DNA from: Octopus vulgaris
Taxonomy: Eukaryota
Direction of reading: 5' to 3'
Length of the DNA stretch: 64,000 bases
NCBI GenBank assembly: GCA_951406725.2
Contig: OX597815.1
Location: 55,986,001 to 56,050,000, forward strand
A program made the position numbers and the translations under genes. The notes beneath the pieces were generated by a model that was given only the letters and a program-made list of their open reading frames with translations, ran no database searches and was not told where the DNA came from. Position 1 is the first letter of the stretch; every line of letters begins with the position of its first letter. Shown piece by piece: positions 8,528 to 63,179 of the stretch.

Positions 8528-10772
8528 AGATAGATAGATAGATAGATAACTTTCTTCATTGGCCACACAGGGCTGGACACAGAGGGGACAATTACAAATG
8601 TATGGCTTTTCTTTTCGGAGATGGAAAAAGAAAAAGAAAAAAAAAAGGAAACAAATGTAAAATTTCGATCAAAAGGGATAGGAAGGAAAAAAAAAAGACG
8701 ATCAAAAGGGATCGTGTATCACGGAAAGAAAAAAAATTTTTTTTTTCAAAGTAACAAGATTAGGTTCATCCGTGGAAAGAAAATCCTACAGAAAAGACCA
8801 CGGTAACCTCAGGCAGGGAGGAAATAGACACTCTCTCTCTCTCTCTTTTACGATTTACAGGATCATGCTCAAAGTGGATTCGTCACTCGCACGCACCATC
8901 TTTGCTACATTCACCCACCTTTTTTTGAAAGTTTCACGAGACAAAACCTGCCTTTCCATTCTCACCTTCCTTTTCAAGTGGTACTTGAAAAAGTTGATGA
9001 GCGATTGGCCAGAGAGGTAAGTGTTTGTCTCTAATCCTTTCGCTCGAGTCCACCACACACATTCTTTCACCATAGCCACCAGTACGATGAAAACTGCCTT
9101 GCCTTCCGGGTTGAGGGAAGGGGGCGATGCAATTTTCAACATCAGGGTCAGGTGTCTCTCGTCGACGCCCAGAGACGTCGTAACACCTCCTCTCCACTAA
9201 TCCTCTATAGAACGCCTTTGTTGTAATGGAGTCGCACAAATTGTAATGGAGTCGCACAAATTTGGTCCCGGACGGCAGAGTTGCTTGAGAGCAACGCGAC
9301 ACTCACGGTGCCATTCGCCTAGCCTCGGTCTCTGTTTGATCCATGACTGCAGTTCGGCCAAGGAGACGAGCTGCGGGAAAGTGCGTCACACAAAAGGCGA
9401 CCACACCTGTTCACCATCGTCTATGAAGTGCCGGAGATGTCGCAGTCTCAGCGCATGTCTGCGCATCATCAACCACGGCATGCCTAGCCCTCCATTTAGC
9501 GGGTGTTGACAGCAAATGGATCGCCTAACCATCGGAACGCTTCTCTTCCACAAGAAGCGGAAGAGTATGCATTCCAGCTTGGTGATGGTAGGGTCGGGAC
9601 AAGGCACGACGGTCAGGCGGTACTCGATGAGGGATGCGATGTACGAGTTCGCCAACTCCGCCCGACCTTTTAGGGATAGCTTCCTCTCAGCCCATTGCTG
9701 GGTGAGAGTGGCCACCCTAGTCGTTATTTCGCCCCAGTTCTTCTCCATTTGAAGGTCTGGACCGAACCAGACTCCGAGCAATTTAACCGGTCCGTCTGTC
9801 CAGTGTCCCACGATGGAGATGCTGTTGGACGGCATGGGCTTGCTTCTCCAGGTGCCGGGCCGCAAGCCCACTGACTTTTCCCGGTAATTTTTGCTCCCGT
9901 TACCGCTTCATATTCTTTTAGTGTCTCGCCGACCAGGTTGATGTGCTTGTGGCTCGACACTATGATGGTGACGTCGTCCGCGTATGCAGACACGCTCCTC
10001 CAGCATCCAAGCTCTCGTGAGATGCCCCTCAGCATCGCCAGTTTCCGCAGTAGTGGTTCAAGAGCCAATACATACAGAAGCAATGAGAGGGGGCATCCTT
10101 GACGAACCGAACGCATGATGTTAAAAGGTCTGGAAAGATGACCATTTATGCGAACTACCGAGCGGATGCCGCTGTATAAGGCAGTGATCTAACCGCGGAA
10201 GATGGGACCAAAACCAGCCGTTTTAAGGACACCCTCCAAGTAGTGATGGTCTACCCTATCGAAGGCTTTTGATTGATCCAAATTGATCAGCGCCCCACCC
10301 ATGCCAGGATCCTTAACTATCTTGTCTATGATGTAGCGCATCAGATGGAGGTTGTCATGGATACTCCTACCCGGCACGGCGCACGTTTGCGCCTTGTCAA
10401 CTAGTTTCTCGATGACAAGCGCCAACCTCTCGGCTAACACCTTGGCCAAATTTTCCAATCTGCGTTGAGCAGAGTGATGGGCCTGAAGTTATCTATGACA
10501 TCCCTCTTGTTTGGATCCTTCTTTAGCAGTGCCACTGCTCCTTGCTTTACAAAGGCGGGGATACTCCCGTTTTGCTGCCAGTTGCAGTAGACAGCTGCCA
10601 AAACACCTCCAAACAAGTCTGGCATATGACAATAAAGTTCGTAGGGCAGACCATCCAGGCCTGGTGACTTGTCTCTCGCGCAGCCTGCCATCGCATCCCG
10701 TACGTCCGCGGCTGTGATGGGTTTTTCACAACACTTCGCCTCTCTTGCTGAGAGCCCCACAATTGAGGCACA
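8528..10772 (-). mobile_element. Tx1-clade LINE, 5'-truncated ORF2 plus 3' end with (TATC)n tail
   Basis: ORF pieces carry KSPGLDGLPYE, NFRPITLLNAD, LDQSKAFDRVDH, SVRQGCPLS, AYADD, KLLGVWFG, LSLKGRA and GGLGMP. The terminus reads TTGTCCCCTCTGTGTCCAGCCCTGTGTGGCCAATGAAGAAAG (8551-8592), followed by (GATA)n on + at 8528-8548. Confidence 0.92.
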
Positions 10773-11580
10773 TTTCGAATCGGCTAGCGTAGCCAAGGGG
10801 ATATCTATCAAACGCTGAAGAATGAATGAAGAGATAATGCTACTGCCCACTTACTTGGGTCGCAGGACCGCAAAAGTGACAGTTGACGAGATCCGGGTTG
10901 GGTATGAGGTAATGTGGTTAGCGGCTGCGGTAGTGTACGACGTGGAGGAAGAAATTTCAATCCTACAAATGAGGAAAAAAGAAGCGGTAAACTGGCGAGG
11001 ACATTCGTAGGAAATGGTCATTCAAGTGGCCAATGAGACCCATTGAAAATTTGCCCGATAGAGTGTTTGTAGGATAGGGTCTAACCATGCAGGTAGCTGT
11101 GGAAGGATGTAGGCCCAGGTGCATCAAATGTGGAGAGAAGGACCACGTCCGTTCCAAATGCACCAGAAAAAAAAAGATGGCGAGGCCCCTCCCCAAAAAG
11201 CTACGAACGAGAAGAACATGACAAAGAAAGCAAATGACAGAGAGGGAAACACAAAAAGGAAAGTCCGAGTAGAAACTAAAGCAGACACGAGTAAAGACAA
11301 CGAAGAAATGGACTTCACCACAGTCACCCACAAAAGACAAAGGATTATTGTTCCCGATTCCTCTCCCCAAGCAAAAAAAAAATCAACAAAAACAACGTTA
11401 GTAAACATACGCAACCAAACTCCCCTATCCAAGCATCATGGCAAAACTATTTGACAAACTTCTCCCTAAATTACATGAAAGAAATGTGATGTTCAATGAA
11501 AATAACGTATCGTTAGCAACACTGATCAGGCACTAACACACGGCAAGAGTTTATAGACAATGTAAAGACACATCAAAAGA
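10773..11580 (+). pseudogene. Tx1-type ORF1 (gag-like, CCHC zinc knuckle) fragment
   Basis: LLPTYLGRRTAKVTV (ORF 10822) matches LLPSYLGKKTTRISV of ORF 13997-14773. VAVEGCRPRCIKCGEKDHVRSKC (~11093-11160) is a CX2CX4HX4C knuckle followed by a charged low-complexity tail. Confidence 0.8.
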
Positions 11581-11587
11581 TGTAAGA

Positions 11588-13250
11588 TTGCTGCCGAAGC
11601 TGGAGAAGTTGGGAGGCAATCCAAATGAAATCGGACGCGATAAGTCGGTCTCTGCTTACGTGGATGACGTCACCTTCATCATGTCCAATGAAGCGCAGCT
11701 ACCTTGTGTAGAAGACGCTATCAAAGGATATGAGGCGGTGGCAGGGGCAAAAGTTAACAAGGACATGTCCATCGGCTTTCGCCTAGGTACCTTGAGGAGC
11801 AAGTCGATATCGTCCAGTGTCGTGGACAGATGGTCCTGTTAAGTTGCTTGGAGTTTGGTTTGGACCGGACTCCCAGACAGAGAAGAATTGGAGCGAGGTG
11901 GCAGACAAGGTATAGGCTCTAGTACGGATTTGGTCCGGAAGGGCTCTGTCCTTGAAAGGAAGGGCGGAGGTGGTACAGGTGTTTATTGCATCTGTCATCA
12001 CCTACTGCCTGACCGTTTTCCCTTGCCCCGATTCATTGTTTAGTAAGTTGGGGCGCCTCTTTTCCGCTTGTTGTGGGAGGAAAGCCACTTGTGAGGCGCT
12101 CCGTTTGTTGCCAGGAACTTCTAAAGGCTTTCTGGCTAATGATGCGCAGCCGTGCGTTGAGGCTGAGGCATCTCTGGCGTTACCTGGAGGGTGATAAAGT
12201 GTGGAATCCACTGGCAGATGAATTCTTTCCGCGACCAGCCTCTTCGGAGCGACTTAAACCCGGTTTCATTAAAAGACGTAATCTGACTGAATGGCATAAG
12301 GAGTGTCGACAGGAACTCTTGCTTATCCACAAGACAGGCAATGCCGGCAGTTGGAATACCTCTTCGGTTTTGTATAGAGGGTTGGTAGAGCATAAAAACG
12401 ATGACACCCTAGGAGGGGCTCTGGGTTTGATGAGAACCAACTTGCCAACCTGTTCAAAAACTTTCGGACCAGGATATTTGGATAATTACAAAAAATCCTT
12501 GACCTGGCAGTGCTACAGGAACGCTTTCCCTATTCGCAATAAGTTATACAGGCTCTGAATGTCAGTGCCAACGATATGTCCAAGATGTGGACTGGACGAT
12601 GAAACCGTCCAGCACGCTTTTGTACATTGTCGTCAGCTGCCAGTCTTGATAATTTACGTCGAACACGTGTTGTCGCATCTGGGAAGAGTACAGGTATCGG
12701 CTGAATCTATAATAAAGATTGTACCGCCAAGTGGACTCTCGAATGAAGGTGAGGTATGTTTTTTTCTGTACAGTTACTGTGCTGAAAGAATGTGCGTGGG
12801 AGACTAGAATGCCAGTACTTGTGACGAGCTAATTCATCTCTGGCCCTGGTTTGCTACAATTCTTCAGATATTATCTGAAAAGCAAGATAGGGCTGGGGAA
12901 GAGAATCCTGTCGCGAAGTGTGTTTGAGGAATGATGGAAGGCTGTGTTAAGAAAGGTGGGTGCAAGTAACCCTACTTAATCTGCATAGGAAAAAAAGGAA
13001 AGGGGTAGTCGCTGGGCCTTTGAGGGAACCGGGCGTAATCCCTTCCCCAAAAGAGAAAAGGCTATAAATGGAAAGTAATCATTTCACAAAAATTTTTAAA
13101 TAAGGATCATTCGAACTCATATTAACGTTTTTGTATATGTTGTCCTGTGCTGTACCATCTATGTGTGACATTTATTGTCTTAACTAGCATTATGACCCGG
13201 CAACGCCGGGTCATAGTGCTAGTTTGGTATAAATTTCTTAAATTAAAAAT
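11588..13250 (+). mobile_element. Tx1-clade LINE, C-terminal half of ORF2 plus 3' UTR (second subfamily)
   Basis: SAYVDDVT, KLLGVWFGP, LSLKGRAEV and the CPRCGLDDETVQHAFVHC zinc finger. The 3' UTR is highly similar to 16222-16560. Confidence 0.9.
13182..13224. repeat. 20-bp-stem hairpin (possible minimal Helitron/Helentron-type end) in the Tx1 3' end
   Basis: AACTAGCATTATGACCCGGC-AAC-GCCGGGTCATAGTGCTAGTT, 19/20 complementary. It is absent from the paralogous 3' end at ~16545-16560. Confidence 0.75.
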
Positions 13251-13355: not shown

Positions 13356-13437
13356 CATCTGCGGGCCGTTTCGGAGATGCACCAATTAATATGAAACATA
13401 TCATATATTTAAAATTGACACTCCCCTCGTCAGGATG
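13356..13437 (-). ncRNA. Type I hammerhead ribozyme variant (C instead of U at position 16.1)
   Basis: Minus strand: CAUC-CUGACGA-GGGGAGUGUCAAUU...AAUUGGUGCAUCUCC-GAAA-CG-GCC-CG-CA-GAUG. Stems I, II and III all pair, but the triplet reads GCA rather than GUH. Confidence 0.7.
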
Positions 13438-13458
13438 TTTTTTACACACAACACATCG

Positions 13459-15150
13459 TTTCTTTATTACCCATAAACGGCTACACAGAGGGGACAATAC
13501 AAACATTGGGGACATAAAACATCACAATTACATAAATATGGAAAATGAAATATGAAAATGATAAATGAAAGTGATGCTAACGGTCCCATCCGCTAGCATC
13601 ACTTACCTGTCCTTCATACTTTATCCTGAATGAAATACACATTGTACTCTATTTTCATCGCAAATCTCTTTTCTATTTCCGTTATTATCTCGTCATCTAT
13701 TTCAAATCTAAACACTTTATAGTTTTTCTTTTTACCCACGAATTCTTCTATACATTCTTCCGAGATTACAGCGTACCTATCACTGTCCTTGTCACACCAG
13801 TGATAGTTTTTCAATATTTCTTTTACGTCTTTTTTCGTCGAAATACCTAGAAAATTGGGCCTAGGTTTTTTTTGCGGTATCTTGTATTTTTGCTTTCTTT
13901 TTTGTTTTCTTGTTGGTGGGAAGCAGGTGGGTTCACTGTCTGCAGGGTCTCAGAGGGTGCGGGTGGTGTTGGGGTGGATTGGGGGTTCATCACTATTTAT
14001 TTTTTCCTTCTTCTCTTCCTCCTTCTTCTGCCTTCTTCCCATTCTTTTTGTACATCCTCCTCTTCCGTTGTGTCTTTCTCCGTTGATTTCTGCTCTTCCT
14101 CGTTGGCCTCTACCTCTCTTTGAGGTTCTGCATCAATTTCCTTTGATGGGGGAGGGCAGTTAGCTCTTATGTGACCTTTTAAGCCACACTTGTAGCAGCG
14201 TGGAGCTCTGCCCTCCACCCACACTCTCATAATAACACTTCCCATTCTGATATTCTCAGTCAATTGTTCCAATATTTCAGCCTCTGCTTGCACGTTTAAT
14301 TCCAAAACTGCCTTCCAGCCTTCATCTTTCACTGTAGCATGGAGGATGTCAACTTCTTCCTCACATCCACTGATTACGGTTGCCACTATCCACTCTCCGT
14401 CAACATTAGGAGGCATCCCCTCCACACTGATCCGAGTAGTTTTTTTACCCAGATATGAGGGCAGAAGGAACATCTTTTCTGTCTTCACCGTTCTCGCTGC
14501 CATTTTCCTCGCCACACTTTCATTCTTGAATTGGACCACCACGGTACCGAAATTTATGCCTCTTGCCAAGAATATTATGTCTTCTTCCGTTCTTTTTAAT
14601 GCTTCTTCTATTGTTTCGATACAGACGACTTCTATGTTCTTTTTTACATTGGCATAAACCCGGTACGTGATGGTCCTTCGTTCATGCAACTCTCCTCGTT
14701 TTGGTGGCGGTGACAACTCCACTTCACCGCCGACCTTTTTAATAAATACCTGGTAGCTTGGTAACTTGGCCAAGTCTATTTCTCTTTCCTCCGTTCTTGT
14801 CGCTCCTGCGTATGTGTTGCCTAATTGCTAGTCCATTTTCTTTATCGCCTTTTCAAGTTCTTCTTCAGAAGTCGATAAATCCGACACACTTTCGTACATA
14901 CTTCTTCTGGCCATCTCTCCCTTAGGGAGGGGCAGCCCACTTCTTCCTTGTCTGTCTCAACACAGACAGACAAAAAAACAAAAAGCTGTGTAACAATAAC
15001 GTTTAACGATAAAAATTAACAATCAACAATTAAACAGCAACTCACAGGTTCAAATAAGAAGCACAATAACACACAATACATAGTACACGTAAACAAATGC
15101 ACAATTACATACCTGCTACATGCAAAAGACCAGACTCTCATAGATACTGA
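13459..15150 (-). mobile_element. ORF1-only (HAL1-like) non-autonomous Tx1 derivative
   Basis: Single gag-like ORF1: ATG near 14914, main ORF 13997-14773 with CYKCGLKGHIRANC, C-terminus to 13614. It is followed directly by a 3' UTR ending in the Tx1 terminal motif (13459-13503). No APE or RT sequence is present. Confidence 0.8.
13614..14914 (-). pseudogene. ORF1p-like nucleic-acid-binding protein with CCHC knuckle (frameshifted)
   Basis: ORFs 13997-14773 and 13614-13814 plus upstream MARRSMYESV... and TYAGAT segments. Homologous to 52720-54037 and 10773-11580. Confidence 0.75.
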
Positions 15151-15759: not shown

Positions 15760-15800
<41 letters not shown>

Positions 15801-15857
15801 CATATACATATAATAGAGAGAAGTTTTTGTTTCACTTTTAACACGTAAAACTGAAAT

Positions 15858-16560
15858 AGTTAACAAGGACAAGTCCATCGGCTTGCGCCTCGGCACCTGG
15901 AAGAACAAGTCGATATCGCACCTAGAGAAGCAAGTCGATATCGTCCAGTGTCGTGGATTTCTGAACAGATGATCCTGTTAAGCTGCTTGGAGTTTGCTTT
16001 GGACCGGACTCCCATACGGAGAAGAATTGGAGCGAGGTAGCCGACTGGGTAGAGGCTCTAGTACGGACTTGGTCCGGAAGGGCTCTGTCCTTGAAAGGAA
16101 GGGCAGAGGTGGTACAGGTGTTTATTGCATCTGCCATCACCTACTGCCTGACCGTTGTCCCTTGCCCCGATTCGTGGCTAAACAAGTTGGAGCGCCTCTT
16201 TTCAGCTTGTTGTGGAAGGGAGGATATCATCTGAAGAGCAAGATAGGGCTGGAGAAGCGAATCCTGTCGCGAAGTGTGTTTGAGGAAAGATGGAAGGCTG
16301 TGTTAAGAAAGGTGGGTGCTAGTAACCCGACTTAATCTGCGTTTGGAGAAAAAAAAAAGGAAAGGGGTAGCCACTGGGCCTTTTAGGCAATTGAGCATAA
16401 TACCCTCCCCAAAAGGGGAAAAAAGACTATATAATATAAAATTTATCTTTTCATTAAAATTTTTTAATAAGGTTCATTTGAACTCGCATTAACTTCATTT
16501 GTATGTGTTGTCGTGTACTATATCATCTATATGTGACATTATTGTCTTAATTAAAAATTC
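15858..16560 (+). mobile_element. Internally deleted Tx1 ORF2/3' UTR fragment
   Basis: Near-identical to 11752-12080, then jumps at ~16222 to the equivalent of ~12868-13185. Confidence 0.88.
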
Positions 16561-16567
16561 AGTTAGC

Positions 16568-16631
16568 AAGCCATGCTACTCCAGACTGATGATGAGCAAT
16601 CACTCAGAAACTAGTCTCTGAATGCTGGCTT
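16568..16631 (+). ncRNA. Type I hammerhead ribozyme, intact core
   Basis: AAGCCA...CAGA-CUGAUGA(16586-92)-UGAG-CAAUCA-CUCA-GAAA(16607-10)-CUA-GUC(16614-16)-UCUG...UGGCUU. Stems I and II pair perfectly. Stem III is the minimal palindrome ACUAGU, typical of Penelope-associated (dimer-type) hammerheads. Confidence 0.85.
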
Positions 16632-16773
16632 TGGTGGGTGGAGATGCTTATCTCCCTCTTTGTAAACATAAGGACACGGAAAATGCCAACAGGAAGCGAT
16701 GCTTTCTAGGGCTAAATAGCAGTAGTATTATTCCCTTTCATGGGACTGTCGCATTAAGTTGACAACACACCAC

Positions 16774-16863
<90 letters not shown>

Positions 16864-23249: not shown

Positions 23250-23963
23250 CTAGCGTTGGTGGGTTCGCTGACGCCATCATTCAGACAAAGAAATTATTTT
23301 ATCGTCGAAAAAATTAAAATATACGCGAACCTTACTTTTGAGGTCTGGATGAAATATTGTGCCAAACATATGAAATTCATCCGACAAGAAACCAGCCTCG
23401 GAAGTGAGGTATACAACTGCGATAGCAAAAAGAAGAAAAAAAAAGAAATAGGGAAATAAAGCCTCAAACCAATCTAGATCACCAACATATACGTCATCAA
23501 GGGGAAAATTACTGCACAATATAGAAGAGAATCTCTACAGATGTGACAAGAAAGCATTCCACAACAAAGGAGTGACGAACTGGTTCTCATATCCATCTAC
23601 CTTGACTGTAGGGTAGTAAAAATAAAGACAGTCAGCGAGCCGCCAGAAAAAAAAGAAACATCTACTTGTTAACGGTAGCTGTCCTCGAACAAAACTAGTA
23701 TTCTGCAAGCCCAAATGCAGTAGAAGTAAAATTGGTCGAACCAAGAGATGGAGCTATTAATCCAAACGGATTACCAGAGCATCGAAGTCATCACGGATTT
23801 AATCAATCTGCCAGACAACACAAAATTACTTGTAGCCATTGAGGGCAGAGAACTAAGATGTCGCTTGTGCAGTGAAATAAACCTTACCAAGACTTCCCTG
23901 TCCGTAGCAAACAAGGAAAGAAGAAATACTTCCACTTCCGCCGACTTCACAACACAACAGTAG
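23250..23963 (+). pseudogene. Highly decayed fourth copy of the Tx1-type ORF1
   Basis: ORF 23748: LPDNTKLLVAIEGRELRCRLC matches FPDETRLRVVVDGRPPVCYKC (53309) and RVWVEGRAPRCYKC (14220). Confidence 0.55.
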
Positions 23964-33894: not shown

Positions 33895-35538
<1,644 letters not shown>

Positions 35539-49202: not shown

Positions 49203-50958
49203 AGGGTCCCCTGATCCCTTATCTGGTGGTCAATGAGGAAACTAGGGATAGATGAATCGTTAGTGAGAGCCGTGCAAGCCATGTACAGGGACGCTGTCAG
49301 TAAGATGAGTGTTGGCAGCGAGTACAGTGAAGAATTCAGGATAGCAGTAGGGGTCCACCAAGGTTCAGTCCTCAGCGCCCTCCTATTTATCATAGTCCCC
49401 CAGGCAATAACAGAGGAATTTAAGACAGGACGCCCCTGGGATCCCCTCAATGCTGATGACCTTGCTCTAATTGCTGAGTCCCTATCAGAACTGGAGGAGA
49501 AGTTTCAAGTATGGAAACAAGGATTAGAATCAAAGGGCCTTAGAGTCAACCTAGCTAAAACCAAAGTCCTAATAAGTAGGAAGGCAGGCAAACCACAATT
49601 CCCTTCAGGTAGATGGCCCAGCTCGATCTGTAGAAAAGGCATAGGTAGAAACTCTATTAGATGCACCAAGTGTAAGCTATGGACACATAAGAGGTATAGC
49701 AATGTCAAAGGAAGGCTAACTAGGAAAATAGTTTTTGTATGTGGCAGATGCTCGGGAGCAATAAACACTGAAAATGCGCAGAGACCAACTTCTACCACAT
49801 TCCAGGGAGAAAAACTAGAAATAGTTGATAGCTTCCATTACCTAGGTGACCAAGTCAGTAGCGGGGGAGGGTGCACTGAAAGTGTAGCTGCTAGAATAAG
49901 AATAGCCTGGGCTAAGTTCAGAGGGCTCTTACCTCTGCTGGTGACAAAGGGCCTCTTGCTCAGAGTAAAAGGTAGACTGTATGACGCATGTGTATGAGCA
50001 GCCATGCTACATGACAGTGAAACATGGGTCGTGACTGCTGAGGACATGTGTAAGCTCGCAAAGAATGAAGCCAGCATGCTCCGATGGATGTGTAATGTCA
50101 GTGTGCATACTCGACAGTGTCAGTGCCTTGAGAAAAAGGTTGGACCTAAGAAGCATCAGATGTGGTGTGCAAGAGAAACGACTGCACTTGTATGGTCATG
50201 TGGTGAGAATGGATGTGGATAGCTGTGTGAAAAAGTACCACACACTAGCAGTTTAGGGAACCTGTGGAAGAGGTAGACCCAGGAAGACCTGGGATGAGGT
50301 GGTGAAGCATGGGCCTCAACGAGGCAATGACTAGTGACCAGGAAATAAGCGCAAGTGAGACCACAACCATGTGGCCTATGCCTGGGGTGTGACCAGTCCA
50401 CTTATACATGCCTTTCCTTCAGTGGACACTAAACTCTGCTTGCGAAGACCTGTTGAGCAAGTGAAATCGAAATCGAAATCAAACTCGGTGATTGGCATCC
50501 ATTGCTAGTGGAGCGCTAAGAGTACCATCCGAGTGAGATCGGGGCCAGAGCAACAAGCTGGCCTCGGTGCCGATGGCACATTAAAAGCACCTTTCGAGCA
50601 TGATTGTTACCTGTGTTGCCTTACTAGCACTTGTGCTGGTGGCACGGGAAAAAAACACTCAAGCGGGGTCGTTGCTAGTACTGCTGGACTGGCTCCTGTG
50701 CAGGTGGCACATAAAAAGCACCATTTGAGCATAGTCGTTGCCAGCACCACCTAACTGGCCATCGTGCCAGTGGCACGTAAAAGTACCCCATATACTCTCA
50801 GAGTGGTTGGCAATAGGAAGGGCATCCAGAAGTAGAAACTCTGCCAGATCAGATTGGAGTCTGGTGCAGCCATCTGGTTCGCCAGACCTCAGTCAAATCG
50901 TCCAACCCATGCTAGCATGTAAAGTGGACGTTAAACGACGATGATGATGATGATGATG
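49203..50958 (+). mobile_element. RTE-clade LINE, 5'-truncated
   Basis: GVHQGSVLS, (Y>N)ADDLAL, YLGD, AMLH.SETW and RGRPRKTW motifs; 3' UTR repeats; (GAT)n tail. Confidence 0.93.
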
Positions 50959-51023: not shown

Positions 51024-51720
51024 TTCTTCTTCTTGGTCCTTTTTACCTCTTGTGGAGCATAGGGCCTCAACAGTTGTTTTCCACTTTTTGCGCTCATTGG
51101 CGTGATTCTTGGCTGCTTCCCATGTCAGGCAGGTGGTCCTGAGCTCATCCAAAATGCTCTGCTTCCATGTCTGCTTCGGGCGTTCACGCTTCCTTTTCCC
51201 CTGCGGGTTCGAGTCAAGTGCTCGTCATGTCACATTTGAAGGTTCTTTCCGCAGCCTGTGTCCAATCCATCTCCATTTCCTTTGTCTAATCTGAACATGT
51301 ATGTGCTCTTGGTTGGCCCTTTCCCACAGGTTGGTGTTTGGCACTCTGTTGAACCACTTCAGATGGAGGATCTGCCAGAGACATTTGTCGATGAAGGTCT
51401 GGATCTTCTTGTAGTTGCTGCAGGTGGCTCTCCATGTTTCAGAGCCATACAAAAGCACAGATTTTACGTTTGAATTAAATAAGCGGAGTTTAGTTCAAGA
51501 TGAGATGGCAGTGGACTTCCATACTGGCTGAAGAATAGCGAAGGGCTGCCAAGCCTTCTTGCTACTTGCCATGATGTCCTCGTTTGATCCACCTGATTTG
51601 CTGATCTTGCTACCAAGATAGACAAATTTATTAATGTCCTCCACAGGTGCCTCCTCGATTGTGATTGGCTCTTCCTTCTTGTTGTTGATACGCAGCACTT
51701 TTGTCTTTTCCTGGCTGATA
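51024..51720 (-). mobile_element. Second RTE-family 3' fragment
   Basis: KTKVLRIN...FVYLGS, LLYGSETW and RKWRWIGH motifs; (GAA)n tail adjoining (TA)n. Confidence 0.88.
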
Positions 51721-51752
<32 letters not shown>

Positions 51753-51915
51753 CAGCCAGGAAAAGACATATACATATATATATATATACATACATATATA
51801 TATATATACACATATACATATATATATACATACATATATATATATACATATATATATATACATATATACATACATACATATATATGTACATATATATATA
51901 TATACACATATATAT

Positions 51916-51957
<42 letters not shown>

Positions 51958-52221
51958 GCGGTGTATATATACATACATACATATACATACATATGCATAC
52001 ATATATACATATACATACATATATACATACATACATATACATACATATATACATATACATACATATATATATACATATGCATACATATATACATACATAC
52101 ATATACATACATATATACATATACATACATATATATATACATATATATATACATATATATATATATATACATATATATACATACATATATATTCATATAT
52201 ATATACATGGATACTTATATG

Positions 52222-52292
<71 letters not shown>

Positions 52293-52719
52293 AATTTCTG
52301 AATGAGCTATAGACAGTAACTGCACGACAATGTGAAGTATATTTGCCATCTAAATATGGCTAACCACTAAGGGTAGATTTTACTGTAGCTTGTAGCCCCA
52401 GGAGAACATCTTCTCCAGCTGGCTATTGACACACTTTCTGTGCCCTATCGGCATTTGCAAAGGGAGGTCATCCTTCCCTCATCAATACCTCGTTCAGAGA
52501 TTTACTATTGCTTGTTTACACTTTTTTAAGAACAGTGACGAAAAATCACTGAAAAAAGGATATATGTATTTGCATTGGGACCCTTCCATCGAAAACCAGT
52601 GATTGTCGTGCATGAAAGTGTTTGTGTCGGTTTTCCGGATTTGAATTTTGTTGATTATTGTTGTTGAAAACTGTTTTGTCATGTTAAATTGTTGAATTTT
52701 TTGTTGGGTATGTAAGCCC

Positions 52720-54037
52720 AAACTTATGCAGGAGCAGCAGGCAAAAGCCTGGCTGTGAACAAATTACAGTTAAAAGAAATAATTATCGAGAAAGAAAATC
52801 TGAGGAAATACTACGACAGCTTCAAGAAGGAATGAGACTGTCTGAGGGTTACACCACCTGAAGACGAAGTGAAAAAAGCAGAGAAAAAAACCATAACATA
52901 CAGAGCATGGAATGTGGTCTCAAAAAGAATAGAAGTAGAAGAGATTGAAAAATGTCTACAAGAAATAAAAGGAAGAACTACCTTCTACAATAGAAATAGA
53001 AATACGCTACGGTAGATGTTCGCTTCGAAAATGAAGACGAAGCGAAAAGGAATGCAACAAGAGTGTTGAGATCAGAAAAATGGGTTTTACTCCCTAGTTA
53101 TTGTGGAAGAAGAGTGGTGGGGATATGAATAAGCAAAATCCCACCAGAACTTGATACTGAAAGAATAGTAGCTGCAATAATCTACAACTGCAAGGAGAAC
53201 GTGGACATACTTAAGGTGGAAAAGTCGAATGAAATAAACTGGTGGGGTTATGCGGTGGAAGCCTTAGTCCACATAACCATGCCAGATTTGTATAACATCC
53301 TGGAGTAGTTGGTGTTCCCCGACGAGACACGACTGAGAGTCGTGGTGGATGGGAGACCTCCAGTTTGTTATAAATGTAAGAGAAGAGGGCACATGAAGGA
53401 TGTGTGTCCTGAAGGAGAAATACAATTGAAGAAGATAACACTAGAGGAAGCAATAAGAGCTTTGACAGAGGATTTAGGAGATAATATGGAAAGTGACGAC
53501 GAGTTAGTGAAGGAGAAAGAAGAGGAAAGAACAGAAAAAAAAGAGGATAGAAAGCAAACACGGGTGGAATCACCACCCAAAGACCAAAAAAAGAAAAAAA
53601 CTAAAAAGAAGTATGATGACGAGACAGAGGATCGAACACACGAAGAGAGAGATGCAGCAACTAAAGTGAGTAGAGGTCCAAAGTGGGAGGAATGGGAAAA
53701 ATGGTCAGCAAAAATAGAAGAATGTCTGAAAGTATGCAAGGAAGGAGGAAGACCTAAAGGAAAGAATCTCAGAGCTGTCATATTGTACACAAAAGATAAA
53801 GAAATTGAGAAAAAATTAACAATAACAAAAAATCTAACGAGAATGAAATTGAACCTGAGAATATACGATAACCAAATAAAGGCTGCAATAGTGGAAAAAG
53901 AGACGGTAAATAAATTTTAAAATTTATTTTCAGATACAGCTGTAACCATAGTGCATTACGTTCGATATGACAGTTTGCCCAGAGTTATAGAGCAAGATAA
54001 ATTACTAGTTTACATTACGGACGAACACCCCAGATAG
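52720..54037 (+). pseudogene. Tx1-type ORF1 with CCHC knuckle (stops/frameshifts)
   Basis: TYAGAA, ITYRAW, LLPSYCGRR and RVVVDGRPPVCYKCKRRGHMKDVC. Colinear with ORF 13997-14773. Confidence 0.82.
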
Positions 54038-54225
54038 TATAACTGTAATTGTATATGAAACTGCAAGCTTTGGGGGGCTGGTAAGCCATTTCATTTAATT
54101 CATTGTTAATATTTCATTTCATTTCATATCATCCTTTTTGTATTTTTATTATATGTACCCCATGTCCTGTATTGTTTTGTTATGTCACCTCTGCATTCAG
54201 GCCATTGTGCCTATAATAAGGAGAA

Positions 54226-54288
54226 AGGTGATTGTCATGCACTGATGACTGGTCAATACCCAGAAACTGCAGTCTGTGCATATCACTT
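54226..54288 (+). ncRNA. Type I hammerhead ribozyme, intact core
   Basis: AGGUGAU..AUGCA-CUGAUGA(54242-48)-C-UGG-UCAAUAC-CCA-GAAA(54263-66)-C-UGCA-GUC(54272-74)-UGUGCAU-AUCACUU. Palindromic minimal stem III (ACUGCAGU) and extended stem I; one extra C precedes stem II. Confidence 0.78.
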
Positions 54289-54469
54289 AGGTTGACGAGG
54301 GAAGGATGACCTCCCTTTGCAAATGCCGATAGGGCACAAAAAGTATGTCAATAGCCAGCTGGAGAAGAAGTTCTCCTGGGGCTACAAGCTACACTAACAT
54401 CTATCCTTAGTGGTTAGCAATATTTTGATGGCAAATATACTTCACATTATATATATATATATATATTTG

Positions 54470-54885
54470 TAAAAAATGAAGTTCGAAAATGCTGCTGTAT
54501 TATACAATTTTTAATTTTTATATATACATTATAACATGTTTCAGTTCCTGAAATGAACCTTATCAAAAAAAGTTATATATAAAAAAAGACAGCTCATGCC
54601 GTCTAACACAAGAAATTCATTTATAATACACAACGAAGTCAGACATCTTAGAGTTCATGTATAGTTGATATATAGTTCATGTATAGTTGATATATAGTTT
54701 GAAGTATATGTTCAAAGTGTTCGATGCAGTGGCCCACGGTGGCGATACGTATTCAATACAAAAAACAGATCAAAGTGGTGGAAAGCGGTCAATACAGAAG
54801 ATTGATGTTTCCGAAAGAGCGAGGAATTCATTTTTACCTTAAGCAATTGTGATGACCCATGGTGGAAGTTCGCTGGGTGGTTCTG

Positions 54886-55719: not shown

Positions 55720-58535
55720 TGGATGCCCAGAAGATGACCAAGATGGAGAAGAAGGGGGTCTGGAAGCTTAAAGATCCTGCAAATGGACAGAGATTTAGAG
55801 ACATATTACTTGAAGCCTTTGACGAAATAGAAGGGGATATAGCTTCACATGGTGTAGAAGACAGCTGGAGGTTTCTATGGGACAACCTACTGAGAGCCAC
55901 TGACCAGATCTGTGGATCGTACAAAGTCCCTTCTCGACCCAAAAAAACGTGGTGGTGGAACAATGTTGTAGACAGGGCTATGAGAAAAAAGAGACAAGCT
56001 TCGAAGGACTGGAAGAACGGTGGTAGCAGGGAATTGTATCAGACTGCCAGACGAGAAGCTAGGAGACAGGTTTATTTAGCCAGAGGGGAAGCAGATAAGG
56101 AAAAAATTTGCCAATGTTCTGCGCTGTGTGGATCAAAGACTTGAGGTATTTTGTGTTGCAAGACAGTGTGTGAGAGAGAATCGTGATGTGGTAGGAGAGA
56201 AATGTGTCAGCATGGATGATGGTTCTCTTACGCTAAATGGGGCTGCAAAGAGAGAGGTTTGGAGATGCCACTATGAAAGGTTGCTAAATAAAGAAAATGA
56301 ATGGGAGAAAGAGAGTCTGCCGAATGTTGACTCAACAGAGGGACAGGACCCTGGTAAATAAAGCAATTATAAGTATGAAGACAGGGAAAGACCCCGGCCC
56401 ATCAGGAGTTACTGCAGAGATGCTCAAAATATCTGGCAGTGTCAGCTATAGTCTGGTCACGCGTATAGTTAACCAGATGATACACGAAAGAGTCATTCCC
56501 AATGACTGGTGTAGCAACATAATAGTCAACTGCTACAGAGGTAAAGGTGACGCTTTAAATACAAATAATTACTGACGTATCAAGCTGTTGGATCAGATAA
56601 TGAAGATCACGGAGAGGGTCATAGCCCAACTAATTAGGGAGAGAGTCAGTTTAGATGAGTGCCAGGGAAAAGCACCACTGATGCTACATTTCTGGTGAGA
56701 CAGTTGCAGGAGAAATACCTAGCCAAAGATAAGCCCCTGCAGCTAGCTTTTGTTGACCCTTATCTGGTGGTCAATGACGAAACTAGGGATAGATGAATGG
56801 TTAGTGAAAGTCAAGCAAGCCATATACAGGGGCCCTGTCAGTAAGGTGAGGGTTGGCAATGAGTACAGTGAAGAATTCAGGGTAGAGGTAGGGGTCTACC
56901 AAGGTTCAGTCCTCAGCCCCCTATTCTTTACCATAATCCTCCAGGCAATAACGGAGGATTTCCTTGGGAGCTCCTCTATGCTGATGACCTTGCTCTAATT
57001 GCTGAGTCCCTATCAGAACTAGAGGAGAAGTTTCAAGTATGGAAACAAGGATTAGAATCAAAGGGCCTTAGAGTCAACCTAGCTAAAACCAAAGTCCTAA
57101 TAAGTAGGAAGGCAGGCAAACCACAAATCCCTTCGAGTAGATAGCCCTGCTCGATCTGTAGTAGAGGTGTAGGTAGAAACTCTATAAGATGTACCCAGTG
57201 TAAGCTATGGACACATAAGAGGTGCAGTAATATCAAAGGAAGGCTAACTAGGAAAATAGTTTTTGTATGTGGCAGATGCTCAGGATCAATAAACACTGAA
57301 AATGCGCAGAGACCAACTTCCACCACATTCCAGGGAGAAAAACAAGTAGTAGTTGATAGCTTCCGTTACCTAGGTGACCAAGTCAGTAGTAGGGGAGGGT
57401 GCGCTGAAAGTGTAGCTGCTAGAATAAGAATAGCCTGGGCTAAGTTCAGAGAGTTCTTACCTCTGCTGGTCACAATGGGCCTCTCGCTCAGTATAAAAGG
57501 TAGACAGTATGACGCATGTGTACGAACAGTCATGCTACATCACAATGAAACATGGGCCATGACTGCTGAGAACATACGTAAGCTCACAAAAAATGAAGCC
57601 AGCATGCTCCGATGGATGTGTAATGTCAGTGTGCATACTTGACAGAGTGTTAGTGCCTTGAGAGAAAGTTTGGACCTAAGAAGCATCAGATGTGCAAGAG
57701 AGACAACGGCGCTGGTATGGTCATGTGGTGAGAATGGATGTGAATAGCTGTGTGAAAAAGTGCCACACCCTAGCAGTTGAGGGAACCTGAGGAAGAGGTA
57801 GACCCAGGAAGACCTGGGATGAGGTGGTGAAGCATGACCTTCAAACACTGGGCCTCACTGAGGCAATGACTAGTGACCAAGATCCTCTGGAAATATAGTG
57901 TGCTTGAGAAGACTCGGCAAGTGCAAGTGAGACTGTAACCTTGTGGCCTCCGCCAGGGGTGTAACCAGTCTACTTATGCATGCCTTTCCTTCATTGGACA
58001 CTAAACTCTACTTGCAAACTCTACTTGCAAAGTGAAATCGAAATCAAAATCAAATCAAATTCAAAGACTAGTATCCGTTGCTAGTGGAGCGCTAAGATTA
58101 CCATACGAGTGAGATCAGGGCCAGAGCAAAAAGCTGGCCTCGGTGCCGATGGCACGTTAAAAACACCATTCAAGCGTGATTGTTATCTGTGTCGCCTACT
58201 AGCACTTGTGCTGGTGTCACATGAAAAAACATTCGAGCGAGGTCGTTGCCAGTGCCGCTGGACTGGCTATTGTGCAGGTGGCACATAAAAAGCACCATTT
58301 GAGCATGGCCATTGCCAGTACCGCCTGACTGGCCCTCGTGCCGGTGGGACGTAAAAGCACCCAATACACTCTCGGAGTGGTTGGCATTAGGAAGGGCATC
58401 CAGCTGTATAAACTCTACCAGATCAGATTGGAGTCTGGTGCAGCCATGTGGTTTGCCAGACCTCAGTCAACTCGTCCAACCCATGCTAGCATGGAAAGCA
58501 GACGTTAAACGACGATAATGATGATGATGATGATA
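55720..58535 (+). mobile_element. RTE-clade LINE, longer copy, multiple deletions and frameshifts
   Basis: KKTWWWNNVV, GKDPGPSG, YADDL and the PHD insert; same 3' UTR and (GAT)n tail as 49203-50958. Confidence 0.93.
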
Positions 58536-59735: not shown

Positions 59736-60449
59736 ATATATATATATATATGTATATGTAAAAAAATACAAACTGGGACAAGAACGCAAAACATTTAGAA
59801 GACGATACAAAAAACACGGACAGGACATTCGAAGCCTTCAATCTTCAGTCAAGAACCGGATCATCCGCGCAATTTTGGCTGATTAATCTTGAGATCGCTC
59901 CGATCCGGCCAGCCCCAAGGGAAAACCAAGCTACGAGCATTAGATTTCTGGAAAAAGGATTGAATGTATACGAAACAAGGACAGAAAAACGGACGATGCC
60001 ACACGAATATAAATACAAAAAACAATAAAGGTACATATATATATATATATATATACTGCATACACACACACTCACAAAGATATTGTAAGTATGTGTGTGT
60101 GTTTGTGTGTTGATACATAATTCATAAATATTAATAGTTATTGGACAAATGTATAATTTGCTAAGAGGAATTAAAGGGTACCGTAAGGTATACATGTGTC
60201 TTTCCTTACCAATTATGCATATGTGTAAAAGTATATATGTATGTGCATGTAGAAATACACATACATATATATATAATTTAGGTATATAGATACCCATTAA
60301 TATACATACATTTATATATATATAAATCAAATGTGAACTTAATATACCTTGATTTTGCAAAAGCTTTGGACAAGGTGGATCATGGTATGATATGACCTTG
60401 GCATAGCTGGAAAACTTGAAGAGTGGTTACATGACTTCCTGAAAGATAG

Positions 60450-62356
60450 GAGCCATGTAGCATGGCTGTTCGTACACATGCATCATACAGTCTGCCTTTT
60501 ACTCTGAGCGAGAGGCCTTTCGTCACCAGCAGAGGTAAGAGCTCTCTGAACTTTGCCCAGGCTATTCTTACTCTAGCAGTTACACTTTCAGCACACCCGC
60601 TACTGACTTGGTCACCTAGGTAACGGAAGCTATCAACTATTTCTAGTTTTTCTCCCTGGAATGTGGTGGAAGTTGGTCTCTGCACATTTTCAGTGTTTAT
60701 TGCTCCTGAGCATCTGCCACATACAAAAACTATTTTCCTAGTTAGCCTTCCTTTGACATTGCTGCACCTCTTATGTGTCCATAGCTTACACTTGGTGCAT
60801 CTTATGCCTTTTCTACAGATCGAGCAGGGCCATCTACCTGAAGGCGTTTGTGATTTGTCTACCTTTCTACTTATTAGGACTTTGGTTTTAGCTAGGTTGA
60901 CTCTAAGGCCCTTCGATTCTAATCCTTGCTTCCACACCTGAAACTTCTCCTCCAGTTCTGATAGTGACTCAGCAATTAGAGCAAGGTCATCAGCATAGAG
61001 GAGCTCCCAGGGGCATCCTGTCTTGAATTCCTCCGTTATTGCCTGGAGGACTATGATAAATAGGAGGGGACTGAGGACTGAACCTTGGTGGACCCCAACC
61101 TCTACCCGGAATTCTTCACTGTACTCATTGCCAACCCCCACCTTACTAGCAGCATCCCTGTACATGGCTTGCATGGCTCTCACTAACCATTCATCTATCC
61201 CTAGTTTCCTCATTGACCACCAGATAAGGGATCGGGGGACCCGGTCGAAGGCTTTCTCCATGTCAACAAAAGCCAGGTACAGGAGCTTATCTTTGGCTAG
61301 GTATTTCTCCTGCAGCTGTCTTACCAGGAATATAGCATCAGTGGTACTCTTCCCTGGCATGAACCCAAACTGCATCTCATCTAAACTAACTCTCTAATTA
61401 GTTGGGCTATGACCCTCTCCATAACCTTCATTACCTGATCCAACAGCTTGATACCCTGTAGTTATTTGTATCTAGGGCGTCACCTTTACCTTTGTAGCAG
61501 TTGACTATTATGCTGCTACACCAGTCATTGGGAATGACTCCTTCGTGTATCACTTGGTTAACTATACGGGTGACTAGGCTATATCCGACACTACGAGATA
61601 TTTTGAGCATCTCTGCAGTAATTCCTGATGGGCCTGGGGCTTTCCCTGTCTTCATGCTTCTAATTGCCTTAACTATCAAGGTACTGTCAACTCGGATAGC
61701 TGGTCCCTCTGTTGGGTCGACATTCGGCAGACTCTCTTTATCCCATTCATTTTCTTTATTCAGCAACCTTTCATAGTGGCATCTCCAAACCTCTCTCTTT
61801 GAATCATCATTTAGCGCAAGTGAACCATCATCCATGCGGACACATTTCTCTCCTACCACATCATGATTCTCTCTCACACACTGTCTTGCAACACGAAATA
61901 CCTCAAGTCTTTCATCCTCACGGCGCAGAACATTGGCAAATTTTTTCTTATCTGCTTCCCCTCTGGCTAAATACACCTGCCTCCTAGCTTCCCTTCTGGC
62001 AGTCTGATACACTTCCCTGCTACCACCGTTCTTCCAGTCCTTCCAAGCCTGTTTCTTTTGTCTAATAGCCCTGTCAACAACATTGTTCCACCACCACGTT
62101 ATTTTGGATCTTGAGGGGACTTTGCACCAACCATAGATCTGGTCAGTGGTTCTCAGCAGGTTGTCCCTTAGAAACCTCCAGTTGTCTTCTACCCCATGTG
62201 AAGCTATATCCCCTTCTATTTTGCCAAAGGCTTCAAGTAATATGTCTCTAAATCTCTGTCCATTCGCAGGATCTTTAAGCTTCCAGACCCTTCTTCTCCA
62301 TGTTGGTCGTCTTCTGGTCATCCTCTTAGTCCTGATCCTAAAGTCACTAACTACCA

Positions 62357-62661: not shown

Positions 62662-62735
<74 letters not shown>

Positions 62736-62913
62736 TGAACGAATTATCCTATGTTTATCGTCAGCATGGAAAATTCGTTTAACCGAAACATGGGTAGCAA
62801 ATTCACGTCAGAAACATGGTTGAAGCAACCTGTCCAAGGGTTCATGTGCAGAAATTTGTGTGTTGTATATGAATAAATGAAAGAATGGAGTCGAACGAAG
62901 ATGTTAACAAAAT

Positions 62914-63008
62914 TCCTTTACTCTCGACATCTGTTTCGAAGACAACATGTTTTCATTCCAAAGGAATAAAGGGTGCATTATGCAATCTTTTCATCGGGAA
63001 AGAAAGGG
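62914..63008 (-). ncRNA. Decayed hammerhead-like motif in a short element (62732-63110) between (TA)n tracts
   Basis: Minus strand CUUUC-CCGAUGA-AAAGAUUGCAU...AUGUUGUCUUC-GAAAC-AGAU-GUC-GAGAG. One core substitution (CCGAUGA); stems I and II pair. Confidence 0.55.
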
Positions 63009-63179
63009 AGCCTCTCTCGACAACAAGACAAACAAAAATTTCGATGACTGCCTACATGGTAAACAAAACGATAATGAGTGTTTTTTAAAAAAAAACGTTA
63101 GAATTGACGTCATATATATATATATGTATGTATATATACATATATACACACACATATATATACATATATACACATATAT

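Follow-up and report, generated by a model that had tools for sequence, protein, structure and literature searches.

Insertions of Penelope-like elements (PLEs) are described as carrying an inverted, 5'-truncated copy and a 30-40-bp tail at one end (PMC8557442), and (TA)n targets are described for Naiad, Hydra and Neptune PLEs (PMC8557442, Craig et al.). In Pen2a_Av, a 31-bp tail runs into the body and the inverted and direct copies overlap by 15 bp (PMC3846280), while the PLE tail in general is described as reflecting two RT start sites (PMC11167929). The minimal hammerheads of PLEs show an extra base, a palindromic loop III and a conserved G10.1-C11.1 pair (PMC4209133), metazoan retrozymes measure 170-400 nt (PMC7229834), and a 2026 preprint ties animal retrozymes to PLEs (bioRxiv 10.64898/2026.07.22.740005). 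Among LINEs, ORF1-only derivatives are known as HAL1 (PMC5753468), the RRM-RRM-CCHC arrangement corresponds to a type I ORF1, consistent with Tx1 (PMC5203782), and Tx1 families aiming at other transposons are known, namely Tx1 into Tx1D, Tx1-Mar and Tx1-8_Crp (PMC4494074). Both kinds of element are recorded as recently active in Octopus vulgaris, with 13 families of L1-Tx1 and 30 of Penelope (PMC13282606).

The window, that is, the whole 64-kb stretch of O. vulgaris DNA that was analysed, is TA-rich and crowded with LINE fragments, and all counts of repeat copies refer to these 64 kb. The unit studied here probably consists of two mobile elements, a LINE derivative nested in a Penelope derivative, with the insert having arrived at the locus soon after the outer unit. 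Its features are as follows, in coordinates of the window.

51721-52289 (~570 bp), no strand: TA-rich microsatellite found by TRF, left flank and target
52290-52328, -: 39-nt tail extension, present on the inverted copy only, its far end repeating the start of the direct copy
52329-52485, -: 5'-truncated inverted copy of the pseudo-LTR (pLTR) 3' part, 157 bp, 94.3%
52486-52612, +: body, or 5' portion, of the putative PLE-derived monomer in its direct copy, pairing with the pLTR that follows the insert
52599-52612, +: left copy of a 14-bp target-site-like duplication (13/14)
52613-54227, +: ORF1-only (half-LINE) insert, 1,615 bp, with boundaries set by the repeat and the 3' terminus
52726-53920, +: decayed ORF1 with the RRM-RRM-CCHC family fold followed by a charged tail, with three stops and two frameshifts
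54181-54227, +: LINE-type 3' terminus with a AATAAAGAAAG-like ending, a motif common to three other elements of the window
54228-54241, +: right copy of the 14-bp duplication (13/14), doubling as the 5' arm of hammerhead stem I
54238-54278, +: minimal type I hammerhead motif with cleavage predicted after 54274 and a palindromic loop III (dimer-type)
54292-54448, +: right arm, corresponding to the pseudo-LTR 3' part and directly adjoining the TA tract
54448-54466 (19 bp), no strand: short (TA)n read from the sequence, right flank

Several other elements were noted in the window. A 547-aa open frame with C2H2 zinc fingers at 33895-35538 (-) is probably a host gene. RT-bearing LINE pieces related to one another (86-90% identity) occupy three places, 49204-50939, 55721-58513 and 59845-62323, and the second of these contains a PHD-finger frame at 57145-57642. 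A 40-bp near-palindrome with CTAG at its end, which we take to be Helitron-like, lies at 13185-13224 directly after a LINE 3' end. At 51703-51768, the 5' end of a presumably RTE-like fragment is mirrored on the other side of a short TA run as an inverted repeat of ~18 bp.

The two arms of the unit match at 148 of 157 positions, and the 157-bp inverted repeats with nine mismatches and no gaps reported in the first-pass annotation were confirmed by blastn (E 3e-64), which detected no third copy of the arm within the 64-kb window. The left copy stops short of the hammerhead, as had also been claimed: it ends at the equivalent of 54292, 17 nt beyond the predicted cut on the 3' side. Only the right arm abuts its TA tract, whereas the left arm lies 39 nt inside the unit, so that the repeats do not form flush ends. 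The end of the tail matches 52486-52505 at 14/16 and 16/20 positions, equalled in 3 of 20000 position-constrained shuffles, the match being weaker when unconstrained and with a shortened query (25, 33 and 247 of 2000 shuffles); the tail of the inverted copy overlaps the direct copy by about 16-20 nt. Flanking (TA)n had been proposed for both sides and was found there, refined to a long TA-rich tract on the left and a short one on the right, and these tracts would mask any fixed-length TSD of the unit. The claimed absence of transposase, RT and GIY-YIG was borne out: no YxDD-type RT motif and no GIY/YIG was found in six frames of the unit, and Pfam returned a weak zf-CCHC alone, with no transposase and no RT/GIY-YIG ORF. 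The single ORF with telomerase-like RT and GIY-YIG that characterises an autonomous EN+ PLE is not found in the unit. An inverted 5'-truncated copy, a 30-40-nt one-sided tail running into the body and a (TA)n target, all known from PLE insertions, are present; together with the short overlap and a minimal hammerhead, this architecture supports the reading of the outer layer as a putative Penelope-type non-autonomous insertion in (TA)n, and the earlier proposal of PLE-type integration is supported by four published PLE hallmarks.

Two further observations concern the arms. An 11-mer recurs at 52321-52331 (-), 52602-52612 and 54231-54241, places that include the junction of pLTR end and tail and the 5' arm of the hammerhead, and is possibly a priming or template-jump signal. 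At 54292-54320, the right arm opens with TTGAYGAG and then a hairpin, resembling a second, decayed hammerhead core without GAAA.

The hammerhead motif is composed of CTGATGA (54242-54248), an extra C, a 3-bp stem II, GAAA (54263-54266) and GTC (54272-54274), and was recovered by the scan only when one extra base was permitted before stem II. Its core is perfect and its score 17; no perfect-core match scoring at least 14 was obtained in 30 block-shuffled windows. The CUGANGA/GAAA/NUH core, the extra base between positions 9 and 10.1 and the palindromic loop III of PLE minimal hammerheads are all present. However, stem II has only 3 bp and is closed by U-A, not by the conserved G10.1-C11.1, a replacement also seen in the hammerhead at 16586. 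The motif might cleave as a dimer, for which an intermolecular fold is predicted. An Rfam gathering scan of the whole window gave no matches, an Rfam E-value scan of the unit gave three chance snoRNA matches and no hammerhead, and 54225-54300 shows no unusual local folding (z 0.06). The tail was also tried as a second, antisense hammerhead and rejected (16/500 shuffles, core not canonical).

The boundaries of the insert are marked by the 14-bp repeat, whose single mismatch falls at a CpG and which was equalled in 3 of 20000 shuffles, or in 7 of 3000 with a free window. The right 14-mer begins on the first base after the AATAAAGAAAG-like terminus, and the terminal motif is in register with the elements at 8548 (-), 22098 (+) and 13456 (-), which define it independently and two of which continue into plain microsatellites. 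LINE TPRT yields a duplication such as this one of 14 bp at a precise LINE terminus. Five stem-I pairs are formed with the upstream 14-mer copy versus four with the downstream copy. An 11-nt part of the repeat is also present at the arm/tail junction, indicating that the motif recurs for reasons other than target duplication.

The 3' UTR of the insert matches that of a second ORF1-only element (~13456-15068 (-); 0/500 shuffles), whose 3' UTR in turn matches the end of the RT-bearing LINE at 8548 (-) (0/500 shuffles). The direct comparison of the insert with this LINE end is not significant (64/500 shuffles); the link runs via the second ORF1 element. Among relatives of the RT of the LINE at 8548 (-), APE, RT and zf-RVT domains occur together in 3 of 13 matches; from this domain set, the partner LINE is presumably Tx1-like. 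The 5' UTRs and the upstream flanks of the two ORF1 elements show no significant homology (89/500 and 182/500 shuffles). The LINE RT at 8548-10755 (-) and a third ORF1 homologue at 10759-13186 (+) are arranged head to head, the latter running directly into a partial RT. The succession of ORF1 (10759-11500) and RT (~11590) was considered as proof of ORF1-ORF2 linkage and set aside, as the junction may represent two insertions.

ORF1 extends from an ATG at 52726 to a TAA at 53920, with in-frame stops at 52833, 53126 and 53306 and frameshifts near 52755 and 53003. Of the ORF1-only element previously described as bracketed by the repeats, the ORF1-only character stands, with the refinement that the ORF is a pseudogene and the bracketing is not flush. 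The ORF shares 34% protein identity with its neighbour in the second ORF1 element (E 4e-27) and matches an 88-sequence family profile (99.9%, E 3.4e-33). The family comprises 321 matches at E up to 0.001, and, of ten relatives looked up, the six that carried names belong to Octopus sinensis, O. vulgaris, O. bimaculoides and Argonauta. RT, APE and GIY-YIG were found in none of the 88 aligned members and in none of 30 separately scanned members. A word-based homologue search retrieved 0/2209 candidates for the decayed ORF and 1/753 for the intact neighbour ORF, PDB sequence searches gave knuckle-level matches only, and single-sequence folding of the ORF gave no confident model (pLDDT 32). The fold was assessed on a homologue at 14120-14770 (-), tied to the studied ORF by sequence matches, whose model (pLDDT 94) comprises two RRMs and then a CCHC knuckle, with tandem RRMs as its fold matches (La RRM: Z 9.7, rmsd 2.5, 82 aligned). 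No L1 ORF1p chain is among the fold matches listed, although the two may still be akin. A fourth, heavily decayed ORF1 homologue lies at 23568-23870 (+) (tblastn E 4e-6). The insert shows the marks of a HAL1-like element, namely an ORF1 without ORF2, type I ORF1 architecture and a target-site-like duplication, and, judged from its sequence, is most likely an ORF1-only, HAL1-like derivative of an L1/Tx1-group LINE.

When the insert was cut out and the circle closed through the tail, an RNA of 353 nt and 41% GC was obtained with a fold z of -3.1 (0/200 shuffles), and when only the 110-nt upstream flank was shuffled, 0/150 folded as well (z -3.6). The duplex of the upstream flank with the pLTR was equalled by 2 of 1000 shuffles, thus beating 998 of 1000, and the insert's own UTRs, used as a control, showed no unusual pairing with the pLTR (z -0.4 and -0.8). 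Since the true upstream flank pairs with the pLTR and the UTRs of the insert do not, the two flanks would have formed one structured RNA before the insert. The alternative raised in the first-pass annotation, that the ORF1 element entered a short PLE derivative, gains from both the 14-bp TSD-like repeat and this flank pairing. The pairing was not replicated at the other two LINE-hammerhead sites of the window (141/1000 and 423/1000) or in a solo unit at 62735-63111 (-) (615/1000). The latter, 377 bp between two TA tracts with no LINE, contains a hammerhead-like motif at 62997 with one core mismatch, belongs to a different sequence family and has a weaker motif; it indicates that hammerhead units between TA tracts occur without a LINE. 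Retrozyme monomers were taken to be non-coding, of about 170-400 nt and below 45-50% GC, a range into which the non-coding monomer, as reconstructed here, falls; tandem units each with a complete hammerhead were not found, the unit having one hammerhead only.

Hammerhead candidates scoring at least 17 number four in the window, against a null mean of 0.23 per window, and by a post hoc count three of the four lie 14, 23 and 28 nt behind a same-strand LINE-type 3' end. These cases comprise the studied unit, the second ORF1 element and an RT fragment with its end near 16557. The second ORF1-only element (13456-15068 (-); flanking repeat 12/13, 39/5000 shuffles) ends 23 nt before a hammerhead core at 13433 (-) with a long stem II and a mutated cleavage triplet. 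The third case, at 15855-16776 (+), is a 5'-truncated L1/Tx1-like RT fragment ending 28 nt before the core at 16586, the top-scoring hammerhead of the window, and is enclosed by TA tracts at 15762-15812 and 16777-16825; the TSD candidate of the RT fragment (15855-16553) matches at only 9/10 positions, overlaps RT homology and was not counted. The three hammerheads and their LINEs represent different families and targets. The chance of such proximity was calculated as 4e-8 for the whole window and as 6e-4 in the most generous setting with the studied unit excluded, for six LINE ends chosen by eye, three of them near hammerheads, and a 40-nt limit set after seeing the data.

This recurrence suggests LINE targeting of, or hitch-hiking with, Penelope hammerhead elements. 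As a tentative extension, for which we see no great likelihood, octopod L1/Tx1 LINEs and their ORF1-only derivatives might home to the position 5' of the hammerhead core of Penelope monomers, where the duplication would rebuild stem I, the LINE would gain a ribozyme-cut 3' end and the monomer would remain mobilisable, and the resulting chimeras might be spread by Penelope machinery as protein-coding retrozymes. Titles and abstract openings, covering few subscription papers and neither Repbase nor supplements, contained no report of LINEs targeting PLE hammerheads and none of ORF1-bearing retrozymes.

If the LINE derivative was nested at the locus, a non-coding hammerhead monomer of ~353 nt, by its architecture a retrozyme-like derivative of a Penelope pseudo-LTR, would have been copied into a (TA)n tract by the reverse transcriptase of an EN+ PLE acting in trans, giving a nearly full direct copy from the pLTR end and a 5'-truncated inverted copy begun 39 nt further out. 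An ORF1-only LINE derivative would then have been inserted directly 5' of the hammerhead core with duplication of 14 bp, its boundaries being those seen in the sequence and its enzymology presumably TPRT with ORF2 in trans. The duplication rebuilds stem I, so that the ribozyme motif is kept, 47 nt behind the LINE 3' end. The second step most likely followed the first at the locus after no long interval, with both layers having since decayed neutrally. Three stops in 388 codons compare with 1.7 expected at d=0.029, the arm divergence (P(>=3)=0.25), and a much younger insert is disfavoured (P=0.02 at d=0.01, one third of the arm age). The decay of the ORF agrees equally well with an insertion that soon followed the outer unit and with a chimera already complete when it arrived. 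Neither an autonomous PLE nor an empty site was seen within the 64-kb window.

Arrival as a ready chimera would mean that the half-LINE entered a master monomer once and that the ~1.98-kb product was then copied here whole by PLE RT/EN, which we regard as possible but unlikely. The divergence of the 14-bp repeat (1/14) and the ORF decay agree with that of the arms (9/157), the hammerhead, pLTR and tail are undisturbed by the insert so that the PLE cis signals are intact, and three of the four window hammerheads follow LINE ends. Moreover, pLTRs are described as sufficient to trans-mobilise unrelated DNA, with pLTR-flanked host genes in Adineta as a parallel (PMC3846280). However, a near-full-length 2-kb copy would be required, and the second ORF1 element precedes an unrelated hammerhead (97/500 shuffles), so that the window shows no composite family common to both. 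Nesting at the locus is favoured because it needs fewer steps and because no second copy of the LINE/monomer chimera was found in the 64 kb. The three LINE-type ends in the same orientation at 14, 23 and 28 nt before hammerhead cores would also be accounted for by a chimera formed at the RNA level, in which the PLE RT paused past stem I, jumped to the 3' end of a half-LINE RNA, copied it and returned 14 nt early, so that the repeat would only resemble a TSD. This is improbable, as two jumps are needed, the junction lies away from the ribozyme cut site and LINE TPRT ordinarily leaves such a duplication of 14 bp exactly at the LINE end.

Two readings that dispense with PLE machinery were rejected. 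A DNA transposon or MITE with 157-bp TIRs that had captured a piece of LINE and a hammerhead would explain the long inverted repeats, and its TA duplication would be hidden by the TA flanks; yet the ends are not flush, unlike those of the TIR with fixed ends that the first-pass annotation named as able to overturn its proposal, a 39-nt one-sided extension repeats interior sequence, RNA pairing joins the interior flank to the arm region, and no transposase was found by Pfam, leaving this origin very improbable. We give equally little credence to a non-autonomous DIRS1-like element with ITRs, a terminal extension and gag only. The ITRs with an extension, the ATT trinucleotides at 52294 and 54446 and the 11-mer common to a terminus and two internal sites recall DIRS1 as described in PMC3266345. 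However, the ICR pair complementary to both termini is missing: no ICR was found for the right terminus (best 10/14; 891-1876 of 2000 shuffles) and the left-ICR-like match does not reach significance (113-185 of 2000), although ICRs are expected to be nearly identical to the termini. In addition, the ORF is of RRM-RRM-CCHC type with a LINE-type end.

At this locus, a retrozyme-sized hammerhead monomer, as reconstructed here, occurs together with the full PLE integration signature of inverted copy, tail and TA target, which supports the recently proposed view that animal retrozymes are non-autonomous PLEs. For octopods, the insert points to an ORF1-only LINE lineage. Should the recurrence of LINE ends before hammerheads hold true genome-wide, the targets of Tx1-type LINEs would gain a new class or, alternatively, cargo would be shown to pass between two retrotransposon subclasses.

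The nested structure is made of parts of known kinds, and their combination was not found described. It resembles EN+ PLE insertions (Pen2a_Av; Neptune/Hydra-type) in the inverted 5'-truncated copy, the 30-40-nt one-sided tail, the ~15-nt overlap of inverted and direct copies, the minimal hammerhead and the (TA)n site; it differs from them in having neither an RT/GIY-YIG ORF nor a separate direct 5' pLTR. With metazoan non-LTR retrozymes (PMC7229834; bioRxiv 10.64898/2026.07.22.740005), it shares a type I hammerhead, a compact fold, a monomer size and composition inferred here as 353 nt and 41% GC and, after removal of the insert, the lack of coding capacity. In contrast to retrozymes, the unit has one hammerhead and a partial inverted copy, not a tandem array, and its monomer is interrupted by a 1.6-kb coding insert. 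The insert is like HAL1 in having ORF1 only, a LINE-type 3' end and TSD-like flanks, but its type I RRM-RRM-CCHC ORF1 belongs to an octopod family, whereas HAL1 is described in mammals, with Transposase_22 (PMC5753468). As in the transposon-targeting Tx1 families, an L1/Tx1-group element lies at a possibly preferred spot in a mobile element, although a PLE/retrozyme hammerhead flank is not among the targets described in the accessible text of PMC4494074 and the preference seen here comprises three cases in one window. Finally, the pLTR-framed NRPS gene of Pen3a_Av (PMC3846280) is likewise a foreign ORF framed by direct/inverted PLE terminal repeats; there, a pair of direct pLTRs encloses the cargo and the TSD is an outer one, whereas at the octopus locus the cargo's own TSD lies inside one monomer.
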